From a virus: a DNA stretch of 64,000 bases. A program made the translations under genes and the position numbers. Below, in pieces: positions 24,614 through 63,210 of this stretch. Numbering within the stretch: position 1 is the first letter of the stretch; every line of letters starts with the position of its first letter. The stretch spans positions 1-64,000 of IMG/VR virus record IMGVR_UViG_3300046535_000406. The stretch is one strand, 5' to 3'. The notes below the pieces were generated by a model. That model saw only the letters and a list, made by a program, of their open reading frames with translations, was not told the DNA's origin and did no database searches.

Positions 24614-25095
24614 CAGATCACTCCTACCAGTGGAGCGTGAAACTGGTGATGCAGGCGCCAAGCGTTCCGGAACGCGACCTCGCGAACCGGGTTGCGTGGC
24701 CCCAGCGGCACAAGCTCCCCGCAGATGATATGCGACGACTCCATCCACGTCGAGGCCATAAGCTCACGTTCTCGCGCATGGAGTGCTTCGCCCAGATCAC
24801 GATAGTCCGCATCGACCAGCGTGAACAGGTCGATGGTGACCCCAGCGAGCGGCACGGAGCCATCGGCAGACCGCTGCTCGACGGGGTACGGGACGCCGAC
24901 TGCGTCAATGAGGATGCGCGGCAGGACCTCCCGGATCGGGCCGTCAGGCAGCTGCGCGGTGGCCGAGTAGACCCGGTCGTCGTTCTCGTCAATGCGCGGC
25001 TGTAGCGAGAACAGCAGCGCCTGAAGCTCCGTGTCGAAGCGGAACAGGGCCACGATCGCATCGGTCAGTTCGTACTCGGGGCTGTTGGTGGTCAT
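24613..25095 (-). CDS. tail terminator / tail completion protein
   Basis: RVY...LPRI...IDLF pattern; 160 aa; upstream of the tail tube. Confidence 0.7.
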   Translation of the reverse strand: MTTNSPEYELTDAIVALFRFDTELQALLFSLQPRIDENDDRVYSATAQLPDGPIREVLPRILIDAVGVPYPVEQRSADGSVPLAGVTIDLFTLVDADYRDLGEALHARERELMASTWMESSHIICGELVPLGPRNPVREVAFRNAWRLHHQFHAPLVGVI

Positions 25096-26141
25096 GCCGG
25101 TCCGTTGCCCTTCAGGTACTGGACGAAGGCGTCGATGTGGTGGTCAGCCGACTTCGGGTGCAGCAGGGCACGCCGGGTGACGTGGCTGGACTCGCGCAGG
25201 TTGACTTCACGGGCACCCTTGATGTCCCACGCGGCCAGCTGGTGCGCGTCCTTGCCGATCTGGCGAGCCAAGTCCTCGGTCGCCACGTTCTGCGACACGT
25301 CGAGGTAGATCAGGCCGTTGTCGAGCCAGCCACCGAGGTAGTGGTCAGGCTTCATCAGCAGGTCTTGGTTCTTGGCGATGAACGACTTCACGTCGCGGCT
25401 GCCGAAGGCCGTCAGCGGGAAGGTGGCCTCACGGTCGGAGTAAGGCGACACCATGAAGCCGTTGGTGGGCGATCCGGCACCGAACGCCTTCACGCTGAAG
25501 CCGCCGTCCTTGGCTTGACTCACGAGCTTGCCGTAGCCGCCCGCAGGCCCAGCCGGATGGCCGCCCGCTGAAGCTCGGCCACCTTCCCAAGCTCCGTAGT
25601 AGTGGTCATCAGTCCCACCGGCCTCGCGGATGCTCGACGTGACCCGGGCGATGGCCGGACCATCGAAGCTCACGGAGCCGTCGCTCCCCGGCGTGCCGAT
25701 CTTCTGAAGCCACTGGGCGGCTGACGGCTCCATCTTGGCGAGCGCGCCCGAGGCGATCGTCAGGGCCGCCACGGCGGACCGCTTGGGACCCTGCGTCATC
25801 GCCCCGTACACGTAGCCCAGAGCCGCCGTCGTACGCGCCGCCGCCGTGCCACCCTCCGTGGACCAGCCGGTGATCGTCCTTGCTCCGCCCGCGTCGCTGT
25901 AGTGGGCGTTGATGATCGTGCCGTCTTGGAAGTGGAACGACTCGATGTCGGGGCTGTAGACGTGGTAGCCCAGCTGTACGGCGTTGGCGCGATCGGCCTT
26001 GGGCGGAGCGATCTGGCCGGGGTGGCCTCCGGATGCCTCCTTACCGCCGTACCAAGCACCATAGAAGTGATCGTCGCCCCCGGACTCGCGCACGCGCTCC
26101 ATCGCAGCGGCCATGTCATCAGCGATCGAGTCGCGGCTCAT
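25092..26141 (-). CDS. tagged cargo polyprotein (349 aa): tag, unknown domain, second tag, possible SAM-lyase-like domain
   Basis: Start MSRDSIADDMAAAM at 26141 (ATGA overlap); two tags; GFMVS...YLGGW...YLDVS...G...Q.A.WD domain. Confidence 0.7.
   Translation of the reverse strand: MSRDSIADDMAAAMERVRESGGDDHFYGAWYGGKEASGGHPGQIAPPKADRANAVQLGYHVYSPDIESFHFQDGTIINAHYSDAGGARTITGWSTEGGTAAARTTAALGYVYGAMTQGPKRSAVAALTIASGALAKMEPSAAQWLQKIGTPGSDGSVSFDGPAIARVTSSIREAGGTDDHYYGAWEGGRASAGGHPAGPAGGYGKLVSQAKDGGFSVKAFGAGSPTNGFMVSPYSDREATFPLTAFGSRDVKSFIAKNQDLLMKPDHYLGGWLDNGLIYLDVSQNVATEDLARQIGKDAHQLAAWDIKGAREVNLRESSHVTRRALLHPKSADHHIDAFVQYLKGNGPA
25554..25628 (-). repeat. tag copy 8 (internal)
   Basis: REAGGTDDHYYGAWEGGRASAGGHP. 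Confidence 0.95.
26019..26090 (-). repeat. tag copy 7
   Basis: RESGGDDHFYGAWYGGKEASGGHP. Confidence 0.95.
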
Positions 26142-26245
26142 GGCTTCTTCTTCTCCGGCTCGGGCTTCGGATGCGGTGGCGGAGGCGGCTTGACGACCAC
26201 GAACTTGCCGGGGTCCTTCTGCCAGCGATCGCCGATGCGTGTCAT
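26138..26245 (-). CDS. 35-aa peptide MTRIGDRWQKDPGKFVVVKPPPPPHPKPEPEKKKP
   Basis: Absent from the ORF track; ATGA overlaps with both neighbours and fills the gap exactly. Confidence 0.7.
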   Translation of the reverse strand: MTRIGDRWQKDPGKFVVVKPPPPPHPKPEPEKKKP

Positions 26246-27408
26246 TTCGGCACCACTGTAACGTGCAGGACCACGCCATCGGCGAGCTTCATGTCGCCCC
26301 ACATGCCGCTCAGGGGCTCGACGCTGTCGATCCGGAAGTGCGTGTCAGGGCCGAGGATCACCTCGCGCTCGCCGCCGAACCTCCCGAGGCTGCCGACGTT
26401 GATGCCCATGGTGCCTGCCGGGGCGCTGATCAGCAGCCGGACGGGTGCTCCGCCCCAGAACAGGTTGTCGTTGTTCAGGCTGGTGCTGACGAAGCCCTTG
26501 TCCGAGATGGTCGCCCCGGTCATAGCTTGGAAGTGGGCCAGCATCTGGTCCTGCGGCATGTGAGACGAGATGTCGAAGCCCTCGCCGGACGTGCCCCGGT
26601 AGAGGGTCATGTTGTCGGCCATCGGACGGAGCGCCTGACGCAGGGACTCAGCCGTCTGGGGAGCCTGCTCGTTGTAGCTGGGGACCTGCCCGGTGCGCAG
26701 GTACTCGTTCACTGGAATGTAGGCGAGGTCGGTGTAGCTGGTCACAGCTGCCGCCACGCCACCGGACAGCTGGTCGTTCCAGTTGCCTGCCGGATGGCCG
26801 CCCTCGCTGGCTCTACCCCCGTACCACGCGCCATAGAAGTGGTCGTCCGCTCCACCGGCTTCGCTGAGTGAGGCGTAGGGGCCGGAGGGCGTCAGCCCTA
26901 GCTCTGACGTGTGGGTCCGTCCATTCCGGGCGACGTTCAGCAGGCGATCGACATCGTCCGAGTTGACCCGTCCCCACGAGTACGGCGTCGCGCCGGAGTG
27001 CAGGGCCACGTTGTAGGCCGTCGCGTACGTCTCCGCCCGCTCGCCACGCGCCAGTCCGCCGAACGGGCGGGCGAGAGGCTTGTAGGCATCCGTCTGCGAC
27101 GGCCAGCCCAGCGCGTGGTCGAGGGCGTGCCCAACCTCATGCTGGACGGCGTCTTGGCTGCCATGCAGCGATGGCTCGATGTTGATTGTCTTGGTGCTGG
27201 GATCGTAGAACGTCGTCTTGGCGGCGTCGTTCACCTTGACCCCGTGCTTGTCGAGAATGCTGCGATCCGAGGCGGGAATGGAAGCGAGCAGAGGGTGGCC
27301 CCCAGCCGATGCCCGGCCTCCGCTCCACGCCCCATAGAAGTGGTCGTCCCCACCTTCGCGGATGCGGCCCATGGCGGCGGCAATCTCGTCGGCGACTGAG
27401 TCGGTCAT
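26242..27408 (-). CDS. tagged cargo polyprotein (388 aa): tag, HExxH metallopeptidase, second tag, VIP2/Alt-like ADP-ribosyltransferase
   Basis: Start MTDSVADEIAAAM at 27408 (ATGA overlap); QHEVGH...ERAETYA; VNEYLR, LYRG, GFVSTS, GEREVIL. Confidence 0.85.
   Translation of the reverse strand: MTDSVADEIAAAMGRIREGGDDHFYGAWSGGRASAGGHPLLASIPASDRSILDKHGVKVNDAAKTTFYDPSTKTINIEPSLHGSQDAVQHEVGHALDHALGWPSQTDAYKPLARPFGGLARGERAETYATAYNVALHSGATPYSWGRVNSDDVDRLLNVARNGRTHTSELGLTPSGPYASLSEAGGADDHFYGAWYGGRASEGGHPAGNWNDQLSGGVAAAVTSYTDLAYIPVNEYLRTGQVPSYNEQAPQTAESLRQALRPMADNMTLYRGTSGEGFDISSHMPQDQMLAHFQAMTGATISDKGFVSTSLNNDNLFWGGAPVRLLISAPAGTMGINVGSLGRFGGEREVILGPDTHFRIDSVEPLSGMWGDMKLADGVVLHVTVVPK
26791..26865 (-). 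repeat. tag copy 6 (internal)
   Basis: SEAGGADDHFYGAWYGGRASEGGHP. Confidence 0.95.
27292..27360 (-). repeat. tag copy 5
   Basis: REGGDDHFYGAWSGGRASAGGHP. Confidence 0.95.
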
Positions 27409-27797
27409 GGCTTCGCCTGCTCCGCCTTCCAGATGGCGAACCGGGTCTTCGCGGCCTGCTCCCAGTCGGCCTTCAGGGCATTGCACCGGGCGTTCCACTC
27501 GTCCCGGGCGTGCTCGTACTCGTCGCGCTTGTCAAGCCCGAAGTCGCGGAGGTTCGGGGCCTTCTCCACCTCGGCCTCGTACTTCGCCTTGGCGGCATCC
27601 TGCGCGTCACCGGCCTCGGCTGCGGTCATCGGATGTCCGCCAGAGCCCGCGCCGCCGCCCTCCCACGCACCGTAGAAGTGGTTGGTGTCGTCAGCTTCAC
27701 GCACGTGCTTGTCCGAGGCTCGGTGCAGGATCACGTCACCGGGCTTGTCCACGAACCGGGCCGGGTTGGGCGCCGGGCGCTTCAGCTTGCCGCTCAT
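27405..27797 (-). CDS. tagged small helical protein (130 aa)
   Basis: ATG at 27797 (ATGA overlap); VREADDTNHFYGAWEGGGAGSGGHP followed by a helical domain. Confidence 0.7.
   Translation of the reverse strand: MSGKLKRPAPNPARFVDKPGDVILHRASDKHVREADDTNHFYGAWEGGGAGSGGHPMTAAEAGDAQDAAKAKYEAEVEKAPNLRDFGLDKRDEYEHARDEWNARCNALKADWEQAAKTRFAIWKAEQAKP
27630..27701 (-). repeat. tag copy 4
   Basis: READDTNHFYGAWEGGGAGSGGHP. Confidence 0.95.
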
Positions 27798-28516
27798 GCT
27801 GGCACCAGTACGACGCGCTGCCACGTCGAGCCAGTCTCGTCCACCCCGAGGCTCGTCATCGACTCGATCCGCCAGCTGGTGTCCCGGCCCAGCAGCATCT
27901 CCTTCTCCATGGCAGTGCCGTAGCCGGAGTCAAGATACGCGGCGTGCATCCCAGCCGGGAGCAGCATCTTGTAGATCACCTTGTTCTGGACGCCGACGCC
28001 AAGCTCGTTCCGGCTGAAGCCCTCTGCGAGGGTCCGGCTGATCGAGGTGGAGGTGAAGCCCCTGCGCTCGATCACGTCGCCCACCTTGGCCCCCACGAGG
28101 TCGGCTCCGCTGCCGCCGTGCCAGACCGTGATCGACTGGGGCAGCGGCTCGACCGCAAGCGCGGCGTCCAGCGACTGGACCTCGCCGTCGATGGCGGCCT
28201 TGTCCGAGGCGCTGAGGTTCGGGGTGCGCCCTTGCAGGTACGGGTTGATGTCCTTGTATCCGTTGCCCGTGTAGATTTCCAGCGCCCTCAGCTGCTGGCT
28301 GGACAGCTTGCTGTCCCAGTTGGCGTACATCTTCGTCATCTGGGTGTGGGTCACGTCGCCGCCGGACGGGGTCCCGCCGCTCGTGATCGTGGCCGGGTGT
28401 CCGCCGTCGGACGAGCGGTGACCGAACCACGCACCGTAGAAGTGATCGTCAGGCCCGCCCTCGCGCAGGCGCGCACGGGTGACGGCGGCAATCTCAGCGG
28501 CCACGGAGTCGCGCAT
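27794..28516 (-). CDS. tagged VIP2/Alt-like ADP-ribosyltransferase (240 aa)
   Basis: YTGNGYKDINPYLQ, TVWHG (His at the usual Arg position), GFTSTS, MEKEMLLGR. Confidence 0.85.
   Translation of the reverse strand: MRDSVAAEIAAVTRARLREGGPDDHFYGAWFGHRSSDGGHPATITSGGTPSGGDVTHTQMTKMYANWDSKLSSQQLRALEIYTGNGYKDINPYLQGRTPNLSASDKAAIDGEVQSLDAALAVEPLPQSITVWHGGSGADLVGAKVGDVIERRGFTSTSISRTLAEGFSRNELGVGVQNKVIYKMLLPAGMHAAYLDSGYGTAMEKEMLLGRDTSWRIESMTSLGVDETGSTWQRVVLVPA
28394..28465 (-). repeat. tag copy 3
   Basis: REGGPDDHFYGAWFGHRSSDGGHP. Confidence 0.95.
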
Positions 28517-29100
28517 CAGACCACCGCCCCGATCGCGCCACCGATCAGGCCACCGACCCGCGCCTCACCGGCCAGATCGAACAGGGTGTCGCTCCACGCC
28601 ATCCGGACTGCCTGCCGGATCGCGGGCAGCATCTCCTCCACGGAGGTAGCGAGGAAGCGGTAGCCCGGCCACCACGTGCCGTTGCGCAGCATGTGCCCGA
28701 ACTCGACCCACATCCAGTAGTCGGCGCCATCGGACATGAGGTCGTAGGCCACGATGTGGGACGCCTCCAACTCGGTCACCAGAACGGCAGTCAAGGTGTC
28801 GTGCATGAGCCCAGTATCGAGGCCGTAGATGTTCCCGTCCGGCGTGATCACGTCGTCTGGCTTGCGCTTCAGCTTGCTCTTGGCAAGCTCGACCACGGCC
28901 TTGGAGACTTCCCCGAGCCTGATCGTGAGGTGGACGTGCATCGACTCGTCCATGCGCTCGGGCAGGGTCATCAGGTTGCCCATCTCGACATCGGCCCCGA
29001 ACAGGACCCAGCGATCCGGGTGCGGGATGAAGCTCGATCCGGCGCCGGGCGTGATCGTCGGCATCCCGCCGGTGAAGATGGAGAACAGGCGCGGCGGCAT
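28516..29100 (-). CDS. HK97 gp10-like neck protein
   Basis: DTGLMHDTL...YWMWVEFGH...PGYRFL; ATG at 29100 (TGATG overlap). Confidence 0.75.
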   Translation of the reverse strand: MPPRLFSIFTGGMPTITPGAGSSFIPHPDRWVLFGADVEMGNLMTLPERMDESMHVHLTIRLGEVSKAVVELAKSKLKRKPDDVITPDGNIYGLDTGLMHDTLTAVLVTELEASHIVAYDLMSDGADYWMWVEFGHMLRNGTWWPGYRFLATSVEEMLPAIRQAVRMAWSDTLFDLAGEARVGGLIGGAIGAVV

Positions 29101-29840
29101 CAGGGCTTCCCGCTGACTGACACGTCCCAGAAGGTGGTCGGCCTGCCACCCATGTTGACGCTTCGCGACCCGAGCACCGTCCAGTCGGCGTTCCGAGGCA
29201 GGACCACGTAGGGCTCGCCGTACTGGCTGTCGCCTTGGGGCGCGAAGGGCGTGCCCGGCATCACGTTGATCCGCATCAGGCTGCGCTCCACTCCGTAGCC
29301 CTCGTCCACGTGCAGGTTGCGACTGCCCATGTAGCCGACCGCGCCGGGCCGGTCGGCTGTCCATGTGTACGACGGGTCGCTGAAGTGGTCGCCCGTCTTC
29401 AGCCCAGCCGGGACCGCCCCCGCCCGGTACACCGTGAAGGGCGCGTCACGAGTGACGCCTTGGGCCATGACCGCGTCCCACGCTGCCAACTCATCCGGGT
29501 TGGGATCGCCGTGATAGATGTCGGCGTTGACTCGCGTCAGGTAGTGGAAGCCCTCGTTGCCGAGGTCCGGGATTTCCTCCACGCCTGAGATGTCCGGGTA
29601 CTTCGCTGCCACCGCTGCCGCCCGATCCATGAACGCCTTGCTCTCTGCCGATGAGACGTTCGACGGTCCGTAGCCGCCGGACTTGCGCATGGTCCCGGAC
29701 GCCTCCGGGTGACCACCGGCACTCGCCCGTCCTCCGAGCCACGCACCGTAGAAGTGGTCGTCGGAGCCGCCTGACTCCCACATGCTCGCCAGCACGGCAT
29801 CGGCCATCTCCTCGCGCAGGGAGCGGATCGAGTCGGGCAT
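29100..29840 (-). CDS. tagged divergent ADP-ribosyltransferase-like protein (246 aa)
   Basis: VNADIY, TVYRAG, GDHFSDPSYTWT, LMRINV.PG, YGEPYVVLPRN; STS and ExE motifs non-canonical. Confidence 0.7.
   Translation of the reverse strand: MPDSIRSLREEMADAVLASMWESGGSDDHFYGAWLGGRASAGGHPEASGTMRKSGGYGPSNVSSAESKAFMDRAAAVAAKYPDISGVEEIPDLGNEGFHYLTRVNADIYHGDPNPDELAAWDAVMAQGVTRDAPFTVYRAGAVPAGLKTGDHFSDPSYTWTADRPGAVGYMGSRNLHVDEGYGVERSLMRINVMPGTPFAPQGDSQYGEPYVVLPRNADWTVLGSRSVNMGGRPTTFWDVSVSGKP
29706..29777 (-). repeat. tag copy 2
   Basis: ESGGSDDHFYGAWLGGRASAGGHP. Confidence 0.95.
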
Positions 29841-30247
29841 CAGATCAGGCCCTGCTTGCGCAGATCGTCAACGGCCACTGGCCCGTTCTCGTAGCGCACG
29901 TGGGACCCACCGACACGGTGGACGTTGCAGCGATGGTCGTACTGGCTGTTGCTCATCAGGTCCTGCGACTGGCACGCCGGGCAGCCGGGCTCAGGCTGGT
30001 TGAACACGGCTCGCAGCACCTTGCGCGCCTGCTCCGCTGTGCAGCCTGCGACGGCGGCGTACTGGGAGGCATCGAGCAGCTGGTCCCACATCATCCGGTG
30101 AAGCTCCCCGGCCATGACCGAGCGCGGCACCATGGTGCCCTCGCCCTCGGGCGGGATCACGGGCGCGGCATAGTTGTCCTCCGGCCCGAAGTCAACCTTC
30201 AGGTGGTTCCGGCCAGTCAGCCGCGCCCAGTTCATGGGGCCGCCCAT
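29840..30247 (-). CDS. hypothetical zinc-binding protein (135 aa)
   Basis: TGATG overlaps at both ends; CPAC...CNVH. Confidence 0.6.
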   Translation of the reverse strand: MGGPMNWARLTGRNHLKVDFGPEDNYAAPVIPPEGEGTMVPRSVMAGELHRMMWDQLLDASQYAAVAGCTAEQARKVLRAVFNQPEPGCPACQSQDLMSNSQYDHRCNVHRVGGSHVRYENGPVAVDDLRKQGLI

Positions 30248-30549
30248 CAGGCGGGCACCCACTTGCCCTGTTGCACGAAGCCGTGCACGCCCGGGCAGTA
30301 GCTGCTGGGGTGTTCGAGGATCGAGGGCGACAGAGTCAGGTCGCCGTCGGCGAGAGAGCCGGTCATCGCCCACGTCACCTTGCCTGTGAGCGGGATGCGG
30401 TTCTCGCAGCGCACGTCGTTGTTGGGCGAGTCGTGGCTCAGCCAGAATGAAGTCAACGTGCCGTCGCTGGATCGCATCTCGGTCAGGCACACGTCATCGG
30501 CGAGCGGGGTGCAGTCGGTGCGGTCGTCGTAATGCCGGTGCTCGGTCAT
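30247..30549 (-). CDS. DUF6527-like protein (100 aa)
   Basis: W...LTLSPSIL...C..HGFV..GKW signature. Confidence 0.65.
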   Translation of the reverse strand: MTEHRHYDDRTDCTPLADDVCLTEMRSSDGTLTSFWLSHDSPNNDVRCENRIPLTGKVTWAMTGSLADGDLTLSPSILEHPSSYCPGVHGFVQQGKWVPA

Positions 30550-30662
30550 CGCCGTCGCCGACTACGGATGGCGATCACCCCGATGATCACTATCAAGATG
30601 ATCAGCAGGATCGCGCCCGCGTCGCCGTCGAGGTGCGTCACGCCTTCATCGATCAGGTGCAT
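30546..30662 (-). CDS. 38-aa single-TM peptide
   Basis: MHLIDEGVTHLDGDAGAILLIILIVIIGVIAIRSRRRR; TAATG and ATGA overlaps; absent from the ORF track. Confidence 0.6.
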   Translation of the reverse strand: MHLIDEGVTHLDGDAGAILLIILIVIIGVIAIRSRRRR

Positions 30663-31105
30663 TACTCGAATAGCTCCGTGTCGATCTGCATGAACGCACC
30701 GAGGTTCAGGGCGTCATAGACGTTCCGCACGTGCACCCGGCGCTCCACCCCCAGCGGGTCGGTCCAGATGAGCGTGTCGTCGCGCTGGGGCAGCGAGCGG
30801 CCATCCCACGACAGGGTGTCGGGATCGCCCACAGCCGGGTAGGAGATGAAGGCCCGGATCATCTGAAGGGTCTGGATGATGCCGTCGATCACGTTGGCCT
30901 GCGGGGCGTTGGAGTCAAGCTGGACGTGTCCCCGGCATTCGAGGTACTGGGTCGGCGCCCCGACGGCGCTGAAGCCGCCGTGAGACTTCGTCATCTGGGC
31001 CGGGCGCTCGAAGGCGACCACCGACTCCTTGGCAACCGATGGCAGGGACTGGCCGAAGTATGGCTCCGCCACCATGCCGCGACGGGACCATGCCCGGTCC
31101 ATCAC
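30662..31105 (-). CDS. head closure / stopper protein
   Basis: Beta-rich, P.RDD.L motif; follows the adaptor. Confidence 0.65.
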   Translation of the reverse strand: MMDRAWSRRGMVAEPYFGQSLPSVAKESVVAFERPAQMTKSHGGFSAVGAPTQYLECRGHVQLDSNAPQANVIDGIIQTLQMIRAFISYPAVGDPDTLSWDGRSLPQRDDTLIWTDPLGVERRVHVRNVYDALNLGAFMQIDTELFE

Positions 31106-31536
31106 TGGCCGTTCCGAAGGACGCGCTCCGTGACGATCGAGCGCAGCCCGAAGTCGTTGTAGGCCACCTCGGCGAAGCCGTCGGCAGGGGTTTCGTAGCC
31201 GCCCAGCCGCTCCTCGAACAGGGACTGAAGCGAGTCAGCCTGCTTCAGCAGGTCGGCCCGGAGCGCGCCGTAGTCAACCGTCGTGTCGCCGACCTGCCGC
31301 CGCATCACGAGCAGGCTCTTGTTGTTGGCGATCGTGCGCAGGGCGACCGAGGCGGCCAGCATCGGATCGGTGAACCGGCGCAGGAAGTTGTTGATTTCCG
31401 GGTCGCTGAAGATCACCGACCGCTTCTCCATGGGCAGGCTGTCGTCAGCCGCCGTCAGGTCGCGGTCATCGATGTAGAGCCGAACCTCGGACAGAGGGTC
31501 GGTGTTCGGGTCCCCGTAGGTCGCGATCACGGTCAT
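31102..31536 (-). CDS. head-tail adaptor protein
   Basis: EVRLYIDD...FSDPEI..FL...VGDTTVDY pattern. Confidence 0.75.
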   Translation of the reverse strand: MTVIATYGDPNTDPLSEVRLYIDDRDLTAADDSLPMEKRSVIFSDPEINNFLRRFTDPMLAASVALRTIANNKSLLVMRRQVGDTTVDYGALRADLLKQADSLQSLFEERLGGYETPADGFAEVAYNDFGLRSIVTERVLRNGQ

Positions 31537-32066
31537 TCTGGCTCTCCGGACTCTGGCTGTGTCCCCCCGGGACCGCCCATCACGATGTCCCCGCCGAAGG
31601 TTGGACCATATCCCGGCGGGGTCGCCAGCCCACGTCGGCGGGCAGCGAACACGAGCCCCAGCAGGGTCGGCACCGAGGCAGCTGCCAGCAGGGCCATCCC
31701 GAGCATCAGCGTGGCGTCGTCACCCGAGATAGTGATCTGGGGCAGGATCACGATGGCTGCTAGCAGCGCGATCGGTAGCAGGGCGATCTGGACTATGGTG
31801 GCGATGAAGGCGACCAGCAGCAGCAGCCACGAGCGCGGGCGGGACTCGTCTGCGAGGTACACGCGCCAGAGGTAGACCACGGATACCCAGCCGGGGAACG
31901 GCGCGATCAGCAGCATCAGTGCGATCAGTGCAACTGCGGTGCTTCGAGGCAACACCAGCAGGCCGACGGTGATCACGACCAGAGTCACCAAGATCAGGGT
32001 CAGCAGCCGGGGCACGTCGGCACCCAGAGACACGACTCGATCGATCAGCGACGCCATTCGTGTCAT
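31533..32066 (-). CDS. multi-pass membrane protein (177 aa)
   Basis: About four long hydrophobic segments; ATGA-coupled. Confidence 0.65.
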   Translation of the reverse strand: MTRMASLIDRVVSLGADVPRLLTLILVTLVVITVGLLVLPRSTAVALIALMLLIAPFPGWVSVVYLWRVYLADESRPRSWLLLLVAFIATIVQIALLPIALLAAIVILPQITISGDDATLMLGMALLAAASVPTLLGLVFAARRRGLATPPGYGPTFGGDIVMGGPGGTQPESGEPE

Positions 32067-32272
32067 CGCTTGTCCCTCCTGTCCACGACGTGCTGCGCTG
32101 CGACAACCTCGTCCATGAAGCGCGTTACCCGGTCCGATACCACTGTCGCACGCATCGCAGCACGCTGTGCCGCCCGCGCCGCGTCAGCCGAAGCACGATG
32201 GGCTTCGGCAGCCTCCGAGGCAGCATCAGTCATGCTGTTCAGGGCCTCCCGGAGCTTCTTTAGGGCGTTCAT
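32063..32272 (-). CDS. small helical protein (69 aa)
   Basis: ATG at 32272 (ATGA overlap) with GGAGG RBS. Confidence 0.55.
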   Translation of the reverse strand: MNALKKLREALNSMTDAASEAAEAHRASADAARAAQRAAMRATVVSDRVTRFMDEVVAAQHVVDRRDKR

Positions 32273-32691
32273 GTGCCCTCCCGCCGTGGCGGACGCGACG
32301 ACTTGCCCTCCTGCTCGATTTCCCGACGCAGACGGGACTCGGTGTTCATTTCCTCGAATGCCGATAGCAAGCGATCGGTGACGCTGCTCAGCTTCTCGAC
32401 CGAAGGCACGAGAGCCGAAGTGGTCTTGACTGACTCCTGAGCTATGGCCTTCCATTCAGATGAGACGGAGCCACGCTCCACCTTCCCGGACAGGAACAAC
32501 CCGATCAGGATCGCCATGCCCGTGATCAGACCGACCGTGCCGCCGGTCGCAAGGGTCGGTAGCTGATCGACCGTGTTCGCCGACGGAGCAATGGCCTCCG
32601 CGAGCACGGCGCCCGCGCCGATCCCCAGCAGCAGCCCGACCGTTGGCAGCATCGCCACCAGAGCGATGCGCACACTCAGGCGGAGCGGCAT
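32269..32691 (-). CDS. membrane protein with coiled-coil tail (140 aa)
   Basis: GAGGAGG RBS; two hydrophobic segments. Confidence 0.65.
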   Translation of the reverse strand: MPLRLSVRIALVAMLPTVGLLLGIGAGAVLAEAIAPSANTVDQLPTLATGGTVGLITGMAILIGLFLSGKVERGSVSSEWKAIAQESVKTTSALVPSVEKLSSVTDRLLSAFEEMNTESRLRREIEQEGKSSRPPRREGT

Positions 32692-32710
32692 GGGACCTCC
32701 TCAGATAGAG

Positions 32711-32740
32711 CGAGGGGCCGGGCCGAAGCCCGACCCCTCG
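32711..32740 (-). terminator. hairpin with cUUCGg tetraloop after the major capsid gene
   Basis: CGAGGGGTCGGGC-TTCG-GCCCGGCCCCTCG; no clear T tract. Confidence 0.6.
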
Positions 32741-32762
32741 GAACTCGGTGCGAGAGCGAGGT

Positions 32763-33755
32763 TTAGCTCGCGGCGACCCGCGACGCGCCCCACCACAGCC
32801 CGGGAGCCCCGCCCCACTCGTACCGGACCTTGTAGCGCATCACGTCGAAGTCAAACTCGTACGGATCGTCGCCACCGGCGACGTTCGTCGTGACTGGCTT
32901 CTCGATGAGCAGGTCCGGCGTGTCCTTCCCGTTCAGGAAGCCCACGAGGAAGGCAGGAACGTCGTTCGGGTCGGCGAAGACGTACCACGCATCCGTCTTG
33001 GTGAGGAACGGATCGACCACGATGTCGAGGTAGTTCTGCAAGACGTTGGCGTTGCCGATCTGCGTGACGGTGCCCGTTGTGCCCACTGCCACGATCAGCG
33101 CCGAGTTGATGATCTGCCGGGCGCTGAACTCAAGGTTCGGCGGCAACAGCAGGAACTTCGGCGTGGCCGAGTAGTAGTTGTTCAGGACCGTCTGGTTGCG
33201 CATGGTCGTGATGGCGGTCTGAATGTTGGTGCTGTTGAACAGCCCCAGCGTGCCGCTCACGACGTTGTTGTTGTGCGTGTTGGTGTCGAACAGGGCGACC
33301 GCGTCGAACGCGAGGCCGTTGGCCTCTACCAGCGAGCGGGCGACCCACTGCGACAAGGTCCGGGTGGCGGCACGGCCAAACCGGCGCGGTTGCTGCCGGA
33401 TATAGCCCATGTCGTCGTTCAGGATGACGTTGCGGTTGATGCTGAAGGCGCGGCCAAACGTGCCGATCTGCCACGTGAAGGCCGCATCCCCGAGCACCGA
33501 GTCCTGATATTGGCCTTCCTCGCCGATCGCGAGGAGGTCTTCGGACTCGTACCCGACCATCGCCGTCTGCGGGCGAAGGTCAGGCGCTTCGGTGATCGAC
33601 ACGTACTGTCGCCAGACCTGCGGGACGCTCTGCGCCCAGTCGATCAGTCGGCGGTACATGACGTTGCCGAGGATGTTCGGGAAGTCCGAGGTAGACCCGG
33701 ACTCGCGAAGCTCGGCGTAGTCGTCCAGAAGCGTCTGGCGGCGATACCGTCCCAC
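32763..33755 (-). CDS. major capsid protein (Mu gpT-like, HK97 fold)
   Basis: STSDFPNIL, FGRAFSINR..ILNDD, PKFLLLPP.LE, FLNG...P motifs; AAAGGAG RBS. Confidence 0.92.
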   Translation of the reverse strand: MGRYRRQTLLDDYAELRESGSTSDFPNILGNVMYRRLIDWAQSVPQVWRQYVSITEAPDLRPQTAMVGYESEDLLAIGEEGQYQDSVLGDAAFTWQIGTFGRAFSINRNVILNDDMGYIRQQPRRFGRAATRTLSQWVARSLVEANGLAFDAVALFDTNTHNNNVVSGTLGLFNSTNIQTAITTMRNQTVLNNYYSATPKFLLLPPNLEFSARQIINSALIVAVGTTGTVTQIGNANVLQNYLDIVVDPFLTKTDAWYVFADPNDVPAFLVGFLNGKDTPDLLIEKPVTTNVAGGDDPYEFDFDVMRYKVRYEWGGAPGLWWGASRVAAS

Positions 33756-33840
33756 CGGGGACTCCTTTCGTTACTGGACTCGGGTCACCCGCCGAGTCGC
33801 CCGGGGGCCGGTTGCCATCCGGTCCGTTGTACGGCTTGGG

Positions 33841-34479
33841 TTAGGCGAGGATGCCTGCCGTTTGCAGCTTCACGATGACCGCGTTCTGTTTGGTCGCAAG
33901 CTCGGTGACGGCGGCCTTCAGGGCGGTGATCGCTGCGTTGATGTCGGTGGCCTGCTGCGCGGTCGGGTCGGTCGAACCGTTCCACGAGAGGGTGGGGTTG
34001 GTGACAGCACCGATGGTGCCGTCCGCCGATGCCCCGGTGCTGTTGTCGATGAGCGCGGGCTCGGCGGTCACCGGGATGGCCGTTGCGAGCGTGTGAAGCT
34101 CGGCGGCATCCGCTGCGGACTCGTTGTAGGTGATGCCTTCGGGGGCCAGCTGGATGATGGCCTTGGTCGAGGCCCGGTCGGTGAGGGCGAACCCGATGAG
34201 GGTGTAGCCCGCGACCGGCGTTCGGGTCAGCACGAGCGGAACGATGTCCGCTCCCGCCGACAGGTCGGACCAGATGGCGTCGCCCTTCACGGTGCCGGTC
34301 GGCACCACGATGTTGTGCGACCCCTGTCGGTCCAGCTGCGTGCTCAGACCGACAGCCACGCCGGTGATGACGAGGCCCCAGTGACCTTCCTGCTTGACGA
34401 GTTGCCCGCCAGTCAGGGCCGTCGAGGCCGTCGCCACCGGAATGTGCTTGAAGTCCCCTCGGAACGTGTTTGCGGGCAT
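33841..34479 (-). CDS. capsid decoration protein (DUF2190-like) with C-terminal head-fibre domain
   Basis: Paralog of 34498-34866 plus a helical tail ending KLQTAGILA. Confidence 0.7.
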   Translation of the reverse strand: MPANTFRGDFKHIPVATASTALTGGQLVKQEGHWGLVITGVAVGLSTQLDRQGSHNIVVPTGTVKGDAIWSDLSAGADIVPLVLTRTPVAGYTLIGFALTDRASTKAIIQLAPEGITYNESAADAAELHTLATAIPVTAEPALIDNSTGASADGTIGAVTNPTLSWNGSTDPTAQQATDINAAITALKAAVTELATKQNAVIVKLQTAGILA

Positions 34480-34497
34480 GTGTCAGTCCCTCTCGGC

Positions 34498-34866
34498 TTA
34501 CGGCGCGAAGCTGGACTGGCTGGCGTTCAGCAGCACGACCGACTTGCCGCCCGAGTCGCGGTCGGTCAGGACCTTGCCGATCACGCGGTAGCCGCTGGTC
34601 GCGGTCCGGGTGAGCGTCACGGTCGTCGCGTCGGTGCCACCGGCGGCGATGTTGGCGTAGAGCAGGTCGCCCTTCACCGTGCTGGAAGGCACGGCGATGT
34701 TGTGGGCGCCTTGGCAGTCGAGCACGGTGCTCTTGCCGGACTTGCAGGTCGTGATGACCACGCCCACGAAGCCCTCTTGGCAGCTGAGGGTGCCGCCCGT
34801 CAGGTCCGCCGATGCGGAGGCGACGGGAATGTGCCGGAAGTCTCCCTTGTACGTGCTGGCGGGCAT
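34498..34866 (-). CDS. capsid decoration/cement protein (DUF2190-like)
   Basis: G.VGV...G.H....GD.LY...IG pattern; between scaffold and capsid genes. Confidence 0.7.
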   Translation of the reverse strand: MPASTYKGDFRHIPVASASADLTGGTLSCQEGFVGVVITTCKSGKSTVLDCQGAHNIAVPSSTVKGDLLYANIAAGGTDATTVTLTRTATSGYRVIGKVLTDRDSGGKSVVLLNASQSSFAP

Positions 34867-34917
34867 CTAGCCCCTCCTCTACTTCCGCAGCGTCCGTGCG
34901 CTGCTGATTGGGTTGAC

Positions 34918-35214
34918 TCAGCCCTCGTCGGGCTGAATGTCCTCGTCGGCCTCGTCGGCCTCGTCGGACTGGCTGTCGGCTCGGTCCTGAGCCGCTTGGC
35001 GAGACTGCTCGGCGAGAGCGGCCCCCAGCGCGTCCGAGGTGTCAATCCCGAGCGTGTGGTTGCCGCTGGTCCCGTCCATGACGGTGCCGTTGATGCGTGC
35101 AAGCTGCACGGCGGTCAGGCCAGCTTCGAGCATGGTCTGATCGTTCTCAGACAGACCGTCCTCGACGGGCGTCTCATCCGCGTCGTCCGTCTCGGTGGCC
35201 TTCTTGCGTGCCAT
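34918..35214 (-). CDS. acidic head-associated protein (98 aa)
   Basis: GGAGGA RBS; contains a GLSE site. Confidence 0.55.
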   Translation of the reverse strand: MARKKATETDDADETPVEDGLSENDQTMLEAGLTAVQLARINGTVMDGTSGNHTLGIDTSDALGAALAEQSRQAAQDRADSQSDEADEADEDIQPDEG

Positions 35215-35230
35215 TGGTTCGGTCCTCCGC

Positions 35231-37498
35231 TCAGGCGTTCATGCGGGAGGCGATGGACGCCTCCGCGCTGGCCGATGACTTGCTCGTCGCCGGAGCGCCA
35301 GCGGGGGTGCCCGTGTCCTTCGCCTCGCGAAGCGGGACATCCTCGTGGCCCATGCGCCGGTCGATGTCGCCTTCCATGGACTCGCGCAGGCTCTTGGGCT
35401 TGTCTGCCTCACCGGCAGCGCCCAGACCCCGGACGAGTGACGGACGCCGGATGCCGGTGGCCTCGGCGACCTTGCGGAAGCCCGCAATCTCGCGCTCGAC
35501 CTCGGTGCCCAGTGCGTCGTCGTCGGCGTAGCCGAAGCCTTCACCGACAGCCGACTCGCGGAAGCGATCGGCGATGTATTCCCGCGCCGGGCGCGGCAGG
35601 TCGCTCTCGGAGAGCATCGAGGTCACGAGCGCATTGGCCCGGCCCTTGGCCTCGACTGCGGCCTCCTTGACCTTCATCTCGGCAAGCTCGCGCTTCAGGG
35701 CGTCGAACTCCTCGCGAGAGGCGAACCCGGACTCGGCCACCTTGGCGTCTTCGGCCTTGGCCTCATCCTTGGGAGCAGCTGCGTCGTCGGCCTTCGCCTC
35801 GGTCTTCGCGGCTTCCTTGGGCTCACCCGCCTTGGGCTGCTCGTCTTCGTCGTCTGCCTCGCGGATGGCGAGATACAGGTCTGGCGCGGCCTCCCGCAGC
35901 TGCGCCGGTGTCATCTGCGCGATGTCGGCCATTTCCATCTCCTCGTAGTCGGCTTCAGCGAAGTCAATCGACCCGCCTGCACCTGCTTCGGTGACCCAGT
36001 CGATGCTGTTGATGTGCGCGATCGACTCCACGATCTGCGCGTCGCGGTTGCCCACTCGACCAGCGCGTGCCTTGCCCTTACCGAGCACGGAGAACGCCAC
36101 CTGATCGGGTGCGGCCTTCCACTTCGCGTAGACCCCGTCATCGATCACCTGAACACGGGAGCGCGGGACGCCACGGGTGTGGTCCCACTTCGTCTCCCGG
36201 ATGACGCCTACCCAGTCACGCACGTCACGCTCGGGGCGTTCGCCCTCCTCGCGACGGGTGGGATGGTTGGCGTACATCTTGCGTCCGTTGAACACGCCTG
36301 AGTCCACGGCCTCGCGGACGGAGTCCGTCGGGTAGTACCGCTTGTCACGCGAGTTGCCGAAGCCCGGTTTGATCGGGGTGATCCAGACCTCGTGCTTGGC
36401 GTCATCGAACTCGGCACCGGCCTCGGCCAGCGTCACGAGTGCATCGCCACCGCCGGACGACTCGTGGAAGCGCACGTCCTCGGGCTTTGACTCGGTGTCG
36501 GTGATGGAGAAGGACTCCTTCACCTGCGACACCGGCAGGTCGGGCTCCTTGCCCTCATCGTCGGCCCAGTTGGGGTCGTTCTTCATGTCGCAGGACGCCC
36601 CGGCCTTCATCAGGGCATCGTGGGCGCCTTGGATCATGCCCTGATCGGCTGCGCTGTTGCGCTTGCCGACCTCGGCCAGAGTCACGTCAACTGCCACGTC
36701 CATGGCCTCCTTCAGTCCCGTCAGGTAGCCACCACGGTCAGCGATTTCAGAGATGGCTTGCGCGTCGCCCTTGTCGGCGAGCATGAACAGAACGCTGTCG
36801 GACACGTGGTGGTAGGGATTGGAGTCGTCGCGAGACGACTGGGGACGCGAGTTGGTCAGGTCGCTGGCCTTGCCGCCGTACCGGGCGAACCGCTCCTCCG
36901 CCGACAGCATCTGCCCGGCGTCCTGCCCAGTGCTGGGCGGAATGTCACTGACGGGGACGGCGTCCTTGCGGCTGATCTTGAGTGCACCGATGTGCGCGAC
37001 CTCGTGGTAGCCGGGCGTGCCCTCTTTCGCGGCGGCCTTCGCTTCGAGCCCCGAGTAGAGCTTGCTCGCCGCCTCGGCGCGGTTCGCCATCGGACCGCCC
37101 GGGTGCCCGCCGGATGACGCTGAGCCGCCCTCCCAAGCGCCATAGAAGTGATCGCCCTCGTCCAGCGGCACCTCACTGGCCTCACGGAGGGTGCGATCCC
37201 ACTCGCCGGTGACCGCGTCGGCCTCACGGATGGAGTCCGGGTACTCGTCCGGGCTCTTGCCCCACTTCTTGTAGCCCTGCCGGAGCTTGGCTTTGACGGC
37301 CCCCATGGCCGCGTCGGGGATGTCGGCCTGCTGCCCTCGGAACCCGCCAGCTGAGAGTGCGGCAGCTGCGCCGGGGAGGTGGTCAGGATCAGGTGCGCCA
37401 GTCGCTGTGAGGTACGGCAGCTTCCACGTGGAGGGATCGGCTGACGGCGCGTAGGCGTAAGCCTTGCGCGGGAGCCCATCCTTCATCTGGTCGGCCAC
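35231..37498 (-). CDS. prohead protease (T4 gp21-like) fused to scaffold, with N-terminal accessory domains and one tag
   Basis: RYYP...MYANHP...AFSV...SIDWVTEAGAGG (His/Ser/Asp); Ala/Glu/Lys-rich C-terminal scaffold; GTG at 37498 with GGAGGG RBS. Confidence 0.85.
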   Translation of the reverse strand: MADQMKDGLPRKAYAYAPSADPSTWKLPYLTATGAPDPDHLPGAAAALSAGGFRGQQADIPDAAMGAVKAKLRQGYKKWGKSPDEYPDSIREADAVTGEWDRTLREASEVPLDEGDHFYGAWEGGSASSGGHPGGPMANRAEAASKLYSGLEAKAAAKEGTPGYHEVAHIGALKISRKDAVPVSDIPPSTGQDAGQMLSAEERFARYGGKASDLTNSRPQSSRDDSNPYHHVSDSVLFMLADKGDAQAISEIADRGGYLTGLKEAMDVAVDVTLAEVGKRNSAADQGMIQGAHDALMKAGASCDMKNDPNWADDEGKEPDLPVSQVKESFSITDTESKPEDVRFHESSGGGDALVTLAEAGAEFDDAKHEVWITPIKPGFGNSRDKRYYPTDSVREAVDSGVFNGRKMYANHPTRREEGERPERDVRDWVGVIRETKWDHTRGVPRSRVQVIDDGVYAKWKAAPDQVAFSVLGKGKARAGRVGNRDAQIVESIAHINSIDWVTEAGAGGSIDFAEADYEEMEMADIAQMTPAQLREAAPDLYLAIREADDEDEQPKAGEPKEAAKTEAKADDAAAPKDEAKAEDAKVAESGFASREEFDALKRELAEMKVKEAAVEAKGRANALVTSMLSESDLPRPAREYIADRFRESAVGEGFGYADDDALGTEVEREIAGFRKVAEATGIRRPSLVRGLGAAGEADKPKSLRESMEGDIDRRMGHEDVPLREAKDTGTPAGAPATSKSSASAEASIASRMNA
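37100..37159 (-). repeat. tag copy 1 (in protease)
   Basis: EGDHFYGAWEGGSASSGGHP. Confidence 0.95.
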
Positions 37499-40668: not shown

Positions 40669-43600
40669 TCACCAGCCGCTGGACGTGCTGTTCTGGACCA
40701 CCGGGCCGCTGTAGTTCTTGGTGTATTCCCACGGGTCCATGCCCGCCTTCCGGGCTTCGTTGTTCCACATGCTGCCGTCGTACTTGGACAGCCGGATGAT
40801 CTGGGGCAGCTGAAGGTCGCGGGCGATGATTTCGCGCTCGCCCTCGGTGGACTGGAACCAGCTGGGGTTGACGAAAGAGGTGGCGTAGAAGTTTTCGAGG
40901 TTCATCTTGGCCGTGATCATCACGCCCGCGTCCTGCACGAAGCCCGCGCTCAGGCCCAGCGAGCCGCCGCGACCTGACGGGTAGCCCAGCCTGCTGAGTC
41001 GTTCGTAGTACGCCTGCGCATCCGTCGTGTCGGCGACGTTGCGCACCCACAGCCACGTGCCGGTGGCCGGGTCGTAGGCGTTGCGAATGTCCTTGATCCA
41101 CTGGACGCTGCTGTTCTCGTAGCGCGGGTCGAAGGTGGCATGGAGCACGGCCCACTGGTTGATCTTGGAGGCGTAGGCGTAGGCATCGGCGTCCGTCTTG
41201 GAGGCGATGAGCCCGGCACCGTAGGTGCGAGCCGAACCCATCTTCTCGACCGTCTTCTCGCCCGACATGCCGCTGCCGGAGTAGCTATGCACGTATCCGA
41301 GGGCTTCCTGCATGGACGACTTGCTCGGGCGACCCGGCACGTCGGAACTCGGGTCCAGTAGTCGCCGCGCCTCCTTCAGGGGATCGGTGGTCGGCGACGG
41401 CAGCAGGTCGCGGTCCCACTCGGCCATCTTGTCGATGTGCTGCTCGTCGTACGTCAGTTGGAGCCGGAAGACGCCGCCGTCCTGAAGCAGCCAGTCACGC
41501 CACGACTGCGGCACATCGGCGCCCTTGGGACCGGCCATGGCAGCCTTGACTTCACTCGCGAAGAAGGTCTGGTAGTCGCCGCGCACTTGGTTCTTGCGCA
41601 GCAGCGCGGCCTCGCGGAAGGCGTCGTACGACTTCTGGCGCAGGCCCTTCCAGTCGTTCAGCACCGGCTGAATGATCTGTAGGAACTGCTGGTCCGACAT
41701 GGCTTCGAGGTGGCCCAGCGTGCGGGCGATGGCCTTGGGATCGACGTTCGCCAGCAGGGCCGGGTTCTTCCGGGCGTCGCGCCAGAACATGCTCCACATG
41801 GGCAGCAGGCCCATCTCGCCGCCCTGCCCCTCGTTGGCCGGGTCCAGCGTGTCGAACTTGCCGCCCATGCCCACCCAAGAGCGCGTCTTGTCGATGCCCC
41901 AGAGGTGGCCGTCGCTCTGGGACACCATCCAGTTGCCGATGTGGGCGTCGTCGTTGGCCGTCAGCCAGTCAAGGACCGACTGCTGGAAGAACTCGGTCGT
42001 CTGGTCTGGCGTCAGTTCGCCGGGGCTCTTTACGTGCTCGATGTCCGGCACGAGCTTCTGAAGCGCGCCGTTGGTCATCTTGCCGTTGATTTCGAGGGTG
42101 TATTGCTTCACCGGCGGCGTGCGCAGGTCGAGCAGCCCAGCCAGCTGGTTCACGGCCACGTCGGTGCGCGCTCCGCGACCAGAGGCACCGATCTTGAACA
42201 TCCACTCGTTGCCCTGCGAGTCAATGAAGGCGGCCTTGGGCGACTGGCCGCCGAGCCCCTTGGCGCTGAGCAGCTTCAGGTCCTGCGGCACCGGCCAGAT
42301 GGTTGGAGCCACGATCGGGGTCGCGACCGTCCCGGCGGCGGAGGACGCGCCCATCTCGGCTTCGATGTCCTGCCGCATCATGTTGGCCCGGTCGGCGGTC
42401 ACCCTGATCCATGCGCGGCTCGTGGTGGCCGCTTCGGCGCCCTTGTAGCGCAGCAGCAGGTCACGCAGAGCCGGGTTGGCGCTCAGCACCTGCTGGTCCA
42501 CTTCGAGCACGGTGCCGGGCGTGGCAGCGATGTTGGAGAGCAGCGAGTGGAGCATCCGGACGGTGGAGGCGGTGACCTCGGCCTCGGTCGTGCCGGAGGC
42601 GATCGTCAGGTTGGTCCATTCCATGATCGGCCCGGTGCGCAGCCACTCGGCTTCGACCTTGCCGCCCGCCCAGCTGGACACGGCTCGCAGGCCGTTGGCG
42701 CGGATCGTCTCGCCCCCGGCCAGCCACAGGTTGTCGGGGGTTCCGCCCATGATCTTGATGGGCTGGTTGGCGAGCACGCCCTTGGGCAGGTCCACCAGCT
42801 GGGGAGGCTTGGGGATCGCCGCGAGGACTTGCCCCTGAAGGAGCGGGTCTTCGGTGTTGGCGAGCAGCGCGTTGGCGAGCGTTTCAGCCTGCGGCCCTTC
42901 GAGCCTGACGCCGGGACCCAGTGCGTCGAAGAAGCCACCGCCCTGCCCCTCGGCAGGCCGGACCCTGAAGTCCGTGCCGCCCGCACGCAACAGCAGGTCC
43001 TTCATGCCCGGGTGCGCGTCGAGGACCGCGTCGATCACGTACAGGCGGGAGGCGGCCATCACGTTGCCGTCTTCGTCCACGCGCTGGGCCGTCTTCTGTG
43101 CGAGGTCCAGCAACTCGGACCACGTGGCGTCGTTGACTTCCTTCGCGGTGGCACCCAAGCTCTCGGCGCCGACCAAGCTCACCAGCGATCCCGTGGTGCT
43201 GACGGCGTACAGGGTCTTGACTTGGTTGCCGCCCGACACGGTGTACGTGGCTGTCTGGATCGTCTGTGGCAGCTTCGTCCCGGGCACGATCTGCTGGGGA
43301 CCCGGGAGCGCCGCCTCGGACGCACCGAGGTGGTGGGTCGCGATCATCTCGGAGTGGTCGTAGCCCAGCAGGGTGTCGAGCCGGGAGGACGCGGGGATCA
43401 GCGGACCCTGAGCTACCTGCGACAGGGACTGGGCGCTGACCGGCGGCACGTAGAGCGGGCTGTTGGGCGTGATCAGCTTGGCGTTCGGGACGTAGGGCAC
43501 GATCGGTGCCGCCTTCAGGGCGCCCGGCACCATGGTCACCGGCGTGCCGTCTTCGAGCTTCACGCTGACCGTGCTCATGGTCGTGGAGGTGACGGTGCCG

Positions 43601-62839: not shown

Positions 62840-62982
62840 CACCAGCACCTGAAGTGCGCCCCATCCTGAACGTCGAAGCTCGGCACGCCCGGATGGGGCA
62901 GAACGCCGCTCCTCAAGAACCGGGGTTGCCGGTCGCGGGGAAAGCCTATCACGGGCGTCCAGACTGCTGGTACTGTGCGCGC

Positions 62983-63210
62983 ATGACCCGCCCCCATCCA
63001 CGCCAAGCGGACGCGCTTGCGCTCGCCTCGGGCATCGCCATCGTCTCCGTGGCCCTCATTGCCGTCGCAGACATCGTCGCCCACGGATCACTCGAACCGG
63101 CGGTGATGACGCTCGTGGCCTCCACGATCGCGCCTCTGACGCCCGCCCTGATCATCCGCTACGGGATCAACCCGAACCGTAGCGGGCACGAGCAGAGCCC
63201 GCCCCAGTGA
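62983..63210 (+). CDS. small 2-TM membrane protein (75 aa)
   Basis: Hydrophobic; GTGA-coupled to the next gene; TGGTACTGT ends 6 nt upstream of the ATG. Confidence 0.55.
   Translation: MTRPHPRQADALALASGIAIVSVALIAVADIVAHGSLEPAVMTLVASTIAPLTPALIIRYGINPNRSGHEQSPPQ

Follow-up and report, generated by a model that had tools for sequence, protein, structure and literature searches.

Proteins that a phage injects together with its DNA are the first weapons to reach the cell, and, except in T4, P1, N4 and the phiKZ group, it is difficult to identify them by sequence. In T4, short N-terminal leaders of 10-20 aa (the capsid-targeting sequence, CTS) are carried by diverse, dispensable, injected anti-host proteins, including an ADP-ribosyltransferase (ART), and are removed by the protease gp21 (PMC3012670, PMC9958956, PMC5694885). 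In phiKZ and SPN3US, a gp21-related protease cuts many head-internal proteins after Glu at (S/A/G)-x-E, at multiple sites in each; head proteases of the gp21 type cleave after Glu, at AXE in SPN3US and at SXE in phiKZ (PMC5694885). Here we describe a short repeated peptide of about 20 residues (the tag) that stands ahead of unrelated effector domains in an uncultured soil phage. The DNA analysed, called the window throughout, is 64,000 nt long and comprises bases 1-64000 of a single virus record (IMG/VR IMGVR_UViG_3300046535_000406; 109,497 bp, linear, GC content 0.67, completeness 87% by CheckV). Our preferred reading, to which we give a probability of roughly 55%, is that the tag and a site just ahead of it form a bipartite junction cassette for capsid-internal cargo: the site would be cut, the tag would be retained at the N-terminus, and the effectors would be packaged and probably ejected.

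The locus resembles the T4 system in having a leader of about 21 aa that ends in a hydrophobic residue, any residue and Glu (φ-x-E), a protease of the gp21 fold in the head module, and diverse cargo behind a conserved signal. It differs in that the conserved element of T4 is the propeptide that is removed, whereas here the most conserved element follows the predicted cut and would stay on the mature protein. In addition, the tag is also found internally in polyproteins and at portal-effector junctions, there is no conserved site after it, and we saw no sequence similarity between it and the T4 CTS. The internal proteins of T4 (IPI-III and Alt) are ejected; ejection of the tagged effectors is predicted. 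Unlike this phage, phiKZ and SPN3US have no common retained motif, and their propeptides are long and differ between proteins.

Other comparisons are with encapsulins and with the polymorphic toxins and polyvalent proteins of the MuF type. Encapsulin cargo-loading peptides are likewise short, disordered, carried by unrelated enzymes and aimed at an HK97-fold shell. They have a different consensus and are usually C-terminal. The tag, in contrast, occurs once per domain, and its binding to a shell is a conjecture. MuF toxins share with the tagged proteins a repertoire of ART, zincin, zeta toxin and GNAT domains (PMC5512222), with ParB-like and RelA/SpoT-like domains assigned here by eye, as well as head-borne delivery, in that cargo of this genome matches the C-termini of 'head morphogenesis' PHROGs. 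Unlike MuF toxins, this genome has no MuF domain (Pfam PF04233 has no match in the whole genome), and its domains are joined by a cleavage-plus-tag cassette and not fused directly. A word search of Iyer et al. 2017 (PMC5512222) did not bring up a junction motif of this kind.

An earlier note on this DNA, made from the sequence alone, had reported eight copies of the tag in six genes. A six-frame scan of the window recovered all eight at the positions given there, in six genes and all on the minus strand, with His codons at 37150, 29756, 28444, 27680, 27342, 26841, 26069 and 25604 and Pro codons ending from 37100 to 25554 (Table 1), and a φ-x-E site precedes each of them, as had also been claimed. 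Four further tags lie beyond the window, at 76695, 76302, 75383 and 74660 of the genome, for a total of 12. A hidden Markov model (HMM) built from all instances of the family gave exactly 12 matches in the genome, at 34-51 bits, and everything else scored below 6 bits. Thus, the repeat is discrete and not an artefact of composition. The consensus is φ-x-E-[AGS]-x-D-D-H-[FY]-Y-G-A-W-x-G-G-x-x-x-x-G-G-H-P.

Tagged proteins are not limited to this phage. At E<=1e-3, a search of 1.84 billion representative proteins with a profile of the genome's 12 tags gave 119 tagged proteins, with as many as six matched stretches in one protein, and a looser regular expression located 167 tags in 116 of these proteins. 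The His, Tyr, Gly, Trp, Gly-Gly and a second Gly-Gly exactly five residues on are nearly invariant (each in 95% or more of the 167 tags). Pro follows the second Gly-Gly in 85%, and Asp-Asp precedes the His in 77-86%.

The codons of the repeat indicate what has been conserved. In pairwise comparisons of the 11 full-length copies in the genome, nucleotide identity is 0.80, 0.84 and 0.47 at codon positions 1, 2 and 3, and where two copies share a residue, the codons differ in 51% of pairs. We conclude that selection acts on the peptide, in agreement with the proposal of the earlier note that the peptide and not the DNA is conserved. The same figures bear on the idea that the repeat matters as DNA, as a recombination cassette that shuffles effector modules, with the peptide incidental. 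The cargo is indeed highly mosaic, and the same cargo family is found behind different junction motifs in different phages. However, the drop in identity at position 3 largely refutes this idea, and the identity of the core (about 70% over 54 nt) is too low for efficient homologous exchange; we regard it as hardly credible. Flanking DNA 31-90 nt away is 31-33% identical, and similarity reaches background within 30 nt on either side. In AlphaFold2 (AF2) prediction, the predicted local distance difference test (pLDDT) is about 30 over leader, tag and linker versus 80-96 over the cargo. The tag thus stands apart from the cargo fold, as a linear motif predicted to be disordered.

The protein that carries tag 1 is a predicted prohead protease. 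It has 769 aa, with a conserved N-domain (aa 20-110), a variable linker that bears the tag, a core of the gp21 fold and a helical, scaffold-like C-terminus. The AF2 model of residues 285-690 has a pLDDT above 90 over the core. Only the T4 gp21 protease (5jbl; E 1.2e-6, probability 1.00) resembles it; the second-ranked structure is at E 0.02. A His and a Ser, 58 residues apart, are invariant in 32 homologues; in gp21 the two are 55 residues apart, a similar spacing. The fold therefore bears out the identification of this gene as the prohead protease. The further claim that a tag heads the protease holds only loosely: tag 1 sits in the variable linker that separates the N-domain from the conserved protease body, some 150 residues ahead of the latter.

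Several observations point to cleavage just ahead of the tag. The cleavage motif of T4 is L/I-x-E. A φ-x-E site is present within 12 residues upstream of 153 of the 167 tags, and in 124 it is 4-5 residues from the His. The more specific pattern φ-R-E-[ASG] occurs 31 times in the 32.6 k residues encoded by the genome (0.95 per 1000 aa). Of these, the protease/scaffold protein accounts for eight, against an expectation of 0.7 (10.4 per 1000 aa, an 11-fold enrichment). The major capsid protein has the pattern at residue 16, where 118 of 120 homologues have φ-x-E, almost all as L-R-E-S, which suggests that the capsid protein sheds a propeptide of about 18 residues at L-R-E/S. Given the gp21-fold protease, the enrichment of the motif and the site in the capsid protein, cleavage just ahead of the tag is the natural reading. 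These indirect lines of evidence favour the earlier proposal that the tag becomes the new N-terminus after maturation cleavage. We also note that the N-terminus of the capsid protein (residues 1-19, L-L-D-D-Y-x-E-L-R-E-S-G-S-T-S) resembles the leaders of the effectors.

A minority of tags lack φ-x-E and have [KR]-[AS] about seven residues upstream. These include copies in the viral contigs L004, L005 and L007, whose head proteases match S78-type or head-maturation-protease families and are fused to the capsid protein in L005 and L007. Judging from these sequences, the site before the tag seems to depend on which protease the phage has, whereas the tag does not change. This has consequences for the idea that the tag is an exosite docking element that makes φ-x-E a fast, fold-independent protease site, a transferable 'cut-here' mark that would do nothing afterwards. 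The tightly held spacing of 4-5 residues between Glu and tag would fit such a signal, as would the presence of a tag at every domain boundary, at portal-effector junctions and within the protease's own linker. However, the same tag accompanies two protease families with different P1 preferences, the capsid protein and the scaffold carry φ-R-E-[ASG] sites without tags, and 59 of the 63 homologues of the protease are themselves untagged. We consider the exosite quite unlikely.

What precedes the first tag of a protein is of three kinds: a leader of about 21 aa, the N-domain of the protease/scaffold protein (aa 20-110), or a portal protein. The leaders (61 modules, median 21 aa) have L/I/V at P3, R at P2 in 61% and E at P1, in a profile that was re-anchored with φ required at P3 and so is partly circular; the count of 153 of 167 for φ-x-E is not circular. 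Their pattern is heptad-like, with hydrophobic residues at P3, P6, P10, P13/14 and P17 and acidic positions between, and they are comparable to the T4 CTS in both length and character. The N-domain is common to all close homologues of the protease and also heads tag polyproteins that are not proteases, and distant homologues carry PF06150 (which we take to be ChaB), possibly over the N-domain. From its distribution among these sequences, the N-domain is a candidate procapsid anchor.

We propose that the order of the cassette is [capsid anchor] - φ-(R)-E (cut) [AGS]-x-D-D - H-F-Y-G-A-W-x-G-G-x4-G-G-(H/G/R)-P - Gly/Pro-rich linker - cargo domain. An amphipathic leader of about 20 aa, the protease/scaffold N-domain or the portal itself would serve as the anchor and bring the precursor into the procapsid. 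The gp21-fold prohead protease would then cleave after Glu, as its fold, the enrichment of the motif and the conserved spacing suggest. Cleavage would release each cargo domain, including those within polyproteins, with the tag as its new N-terminus. The tag would stay on the mature protein and act after cleavage, a role that we favour because there is one tag per domain, because it is kept in portal fusions and because phages whose head proteins differ have the same tag. It might hold or order cargo in the filled head, lead the exit through the portal-tail channel, or serve a first step inside the host. The cargo would be toxin-like enzymes, presumably injected with the DNA: ARTs and zincins here, and elsewhere GNATs and zeta-toxin kinases.

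Other phages provide a link between the tag and the virion. Three representative proteins and the viral contig L005 have a portal protein fused through a tag to an effector, in two different portal families, and behind the tag come a lethal-factor-like peptidase, a zeta toxin and an effector of unknown function. In all four viral contigs with usable context, a tagged gene is fused to the portal gene or is at most three genes from it. Together with the location of the window's tagged genes in the head-tail module and the matches of their cargo to MuF-type 'head morphogenesis' proteins, these fusions argue, indirectly, for the earlier proposal that tagged proteins are head-associated cargo. Two portal C-termini (L007:3040-3498 and L010:4381-4803) also carry a cargo domain of the gene A type behind G-G-Q-F-G-Y-A-G-G, a Gly-rich stretch that looks like a degenerate tag.

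The earlier note had expected an HMM search to find tags confined to head modules with variable domains downstream. The downstream domains are indeed variable. Confinement does not hold: the genes with the four tags outside the window adjoin a gene for a DNA methyltransferase (phrog_67, 8.6e-64), 11-14 kb beyond the portal gene and outside the head module. These four tags would be expected if the tag acted in the cytoplasm on a universally conserved machine, either as a handle by which a host chaperone or protease refolds the effectors or removes them at a set time, or as a peptide that pauses the ribosome from within its tunnel. The invariance of the tag across head lineages also hints at a partner outside the head, and the W-x10-P spacing is nearly fixed; the W-to-P spacing of 11 is reminiscent of SecM. 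Against a cytoplasmic role are the portal fusions, the embedding of tagged genes in the head-tail module, the absence of the tag from 185,579 reference bacterial and archaeal genomes, and one genomic copy with a deletion of 3 residues between W and P. For pausing in particular, a 20-aa leader would leave almost nothing out of the tunnel at the pause point. We judge a cytoplasmic role to be very unlikely. Possible resemblances to the Trp-cage miniprotein, double-glycine bacteriocin leaders, 2A skipping peptides, ATCUN metal sites and the arrest peptides SecM and TnaC were set aside as speculative or poor fits.

Could the tag itself be the capsid-loading address, docking on the capsid interior or the scaffold as an encapsulin peptide or the T4 CTS does? 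The earlier note had proposed this, and a single conserved peptide shared by many unrelated cargo domains and by the protease/scaffold protein is what such an address would look like. An aromatic knob flanked by Gly in a disordered linear motif is typical of docking peptides. However, the tag is repeated ahead of every domain of a polyprotein, where one copy would suffice, and is kept between portal and effector, where none is needed. The same tag is found with heads of the Phage_capsid_4/gp21-fold type and of the Phage_capsid/S78 type. It is downstream of the likely cut and so is not removed, unlike the T4 CTS, and a distinct, conserved, helical leader is present upstream. The proposal thus fared poorly, and we think it unlikely that the tag is the address; the loading address is more likely upstream, in the helical leader, the protease N-domain or the portal. 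Somewhat less unlikely, and offered tentatively, is that the tag is a portable post-maturation delivery signal that does not depend on the head lineage, for example the leading end of each unfolded cargo on its way through the portal-tail channel or a ligand for a conserved host factor on entry.

Returning to the junction cassette as a whole, several points weigh against it. The head regions of relatives of the capsid gene are free of tags (0 of 17 loci), and 4 of 63 homologues of the protease are tagged; the cassette is therefore optional. Four tags of this genome are outside the structural module, and no binding partner for the tag was found. Cleavage, packaging and ejection are all inferred, the leader profile is partly circular as described above, and φ-x-E could be a structural feature of the leader instead of a cut site. 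Co-folding of the tag with the capsid protein and the protease/scaffold protein (aa 285-690) gave a score of 0.00, which counts neither way.

The cargo in the window is in part recognisable. Three ART-like domains had been noted. Two are clear (Pfam, 3.8e-22 and 5.2e-26), and the third, in gene E (29100-29840), is ART-like by hhalign (96%, E 2e-9) and has Tyr in place of the second Glu of the ExE motif. The suggested HExxH peptidase is weakly matched (Pfam E 0.014, PHROG E 0.0022). A possible SAM-lyase-like domain, which we assume to be the second domain of gene A (25092-26144), did not hold up: its Foldseek match is at E 0.19, and its best VIA match (Z 5.3) is to an unrelated toxin. The remaining cargo consists of three segments of unknown function and a variable segment of about 135 aa after the tag of the protease. 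The two genes outside the window encode tag-X-tag-(RelA/SpoT-like) and tag-zincin-tag-(ParB-like) proteins, the labels of the last domains being assigned by eye without confirmation by a family model. Cargo domains encoded in the window match the C-termini of PHROGs annotated as 'head morphogenesis/minor head', and the C-terminal domains from outside it match C-terminal parts of such PHROGs as well as the C-terminus of XopAD-type effectors. In two other phages, the phrog_17808 domain that follows tag 8 here is joined to the C-termini of portal proteins.

Across the family, the median length of segments headed by a tag (n=175) is 206 aa. By sequence they form at least 86 clusters, of which 60 have a single member. 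Pfam recognised GNAT (11), Zeta_toxin (10), lethal-factor-like peptidase (ATLF, 4), portal (3) and ART (2) domains in 118 tagged proteins, and PF04233 (MuF) was not among the families recognised there. No Pfam, NCBIfam or PHROG model matches any tag region or the 139-aa protein that consists of a tag plus helices, and the isolated phages (50,697 records) gave no match by megablast or tblastn. The reference genomes, one for each of 185,579 bacterial and archaeal species, contain no genuine tag; three pattern matches there lack the Gly-rich half and hence are due to chance. The ESM Atlas gave nothing useful for the leader-plus-tag region, and a literature search found the motif strings in no relevant paper. 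The tag thus appears to be undescribed so far, in line with the remark of the earlier note that the motif was not recognised as described.

Table 1. Features of the locus and of related contigs. Positions are those of the window unless another sequence is named.
Feature	Coordinates	Strand	Basis
Tag 1, site L-D-E, variable linker of protease/scaffold gene	37100..37174	-	
Tag 2, site M-W-E, heads divergent ART-like domain	29706..29780	-	
Tag 3, site L-R-E, heads ADPrib_exo_Tox domain	28394..28468	-	
Tag 4, site V-R-E, heads helical segment of ~75 aa	27630..27704	-	
Tag 5, site I-R-E, heads HExxH zincin-like domain	27292..27366	-	
Tag 6, site L-S-E, internal in the gene of tag 5, heads ADPrib_exo_Tox domain	26791..26865	-	
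Tag 7, site V-R-E, heads domain of ~130 aa	26019..26093	-	
Tag 8, site I-R-E, internal, heads well-folded alpha/beta domain (phrog_17808)	25554..25628	-	
Gene A, polyprotein leader-tag-X-tag-Y	25092..26144	-	
Gene B, polyprotein leader-tag-zincin-tag-ART	26242..27411	-	
Gene C, tag plus small helical protein, 139 aa	27405..27824	-	P0028 in tagged family
Gene D, leader-tag-ART	27794..28516	-	Pfam
Neck1/tail-completion-like gene between tagged genes	28516..29103	-	phrog_5, weak, E 2.3e-5
Gene E, leader-tag-ART-like	29100..29840	-	hhalign
Major capsid protein (Phage_capsid_4 / Mu gpT-like)	32763..33755	-	Pfam
Cement-like gene	33841-34479		weak Pfam match, below family cut-off
Apparent paralogue of cement-like gene	34498-34866		by eye
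Protease/scaffold protein, 769 aa	35231..37540	-	fold model and homologue comparison
6715-aa gene directly after portal, tag-free	40669..60816	-	tag HMM
Portal protein	60764..63001	-	phrog_10963, 2.3e-34
Two coupled genes with four tags, outside the window	genome 74001-76770 (L001:10001-12770)	-	
Second junction motif	L007:4472-4573, 5470-5571, 6165-6266, 7358-7459; L004:3982-4074		

Near-identical sequence is present in many soil and rhizosphere metagenome runs, and the phage is known solely from these. Among the sequencing runs listed with near-identical sequence, none holds RNA. The tagged cluster of the window is located between the capsid gene and the tail genes: past the capsid gene come the genes of the connector region, then five tagged genes interleaved with the weakly Neck1-like gene, then the tail genes, where the length and position of an open reading frame (ORF) of 1568 aa mark it as the likely tape-measure gene. 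The connector region also encodes a 177-aa protein (31533-32066, minus strand) with, by eye, several hydrophobic, membrane-like segments and no family match. The terminase model PF03237 was not found anywhere in the 109,497-bp record.

In the product of the 6715-aa ORF, a NUDIX domain is accompanied by two arrays (aa 2660-3573 and aa 4388-5781) that together comprise 34 divergent KOW/SH3-like units, each of about 50 aa. Residues 1214-1455 are homologous to tag-headed cargo in the contigs L014 and L023. A 'cargo rack', in which the KOW/SH3-like units are receptors for the tags, is unlikely in general: a tag-bearing phage of 36.6 kb, rated 100% complete, has no such units.

A second junction motif, R-G-[VK]-A-Q-D-[YW]-[IT]-K-[GA]-E-[HG]-G-[YL]-F-x-G-[AS]-R-P, was also seen. 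In the 36.6-kb phage, which has one canonical tag, it heads DUF3626, ART and RelA/SpoT-like cargo, and in L004 the cargo behind it is of the family found behind the canonical tag in gene A. One protein (P0108) has both motifs. The second motif is rare: a scan of IMG/VR gave only contigs of the 36.6-kb phage (L007 and near-identical copies), plus the contig L046.

The tag marks likely packaged effectors directly, twelve in this genome and 175 segments in at least 86 clusters across metagenomes, and many of the segments that it heads have no known fold or function. The finding also raises the question of which partner is conserved enough to keep a motif of 17 residues almost unchanged in phages whose head proteins differ. 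The modular design of anchor, protease site and retained tag, which the sequences suggest, could be adapted for packing foreign proteins into phage particles. If the tag is indeed a portable delivery signal, then 'leader + cut site + tag' would amount to a general-purpose cassette that loads any protein into the head and has it injected.

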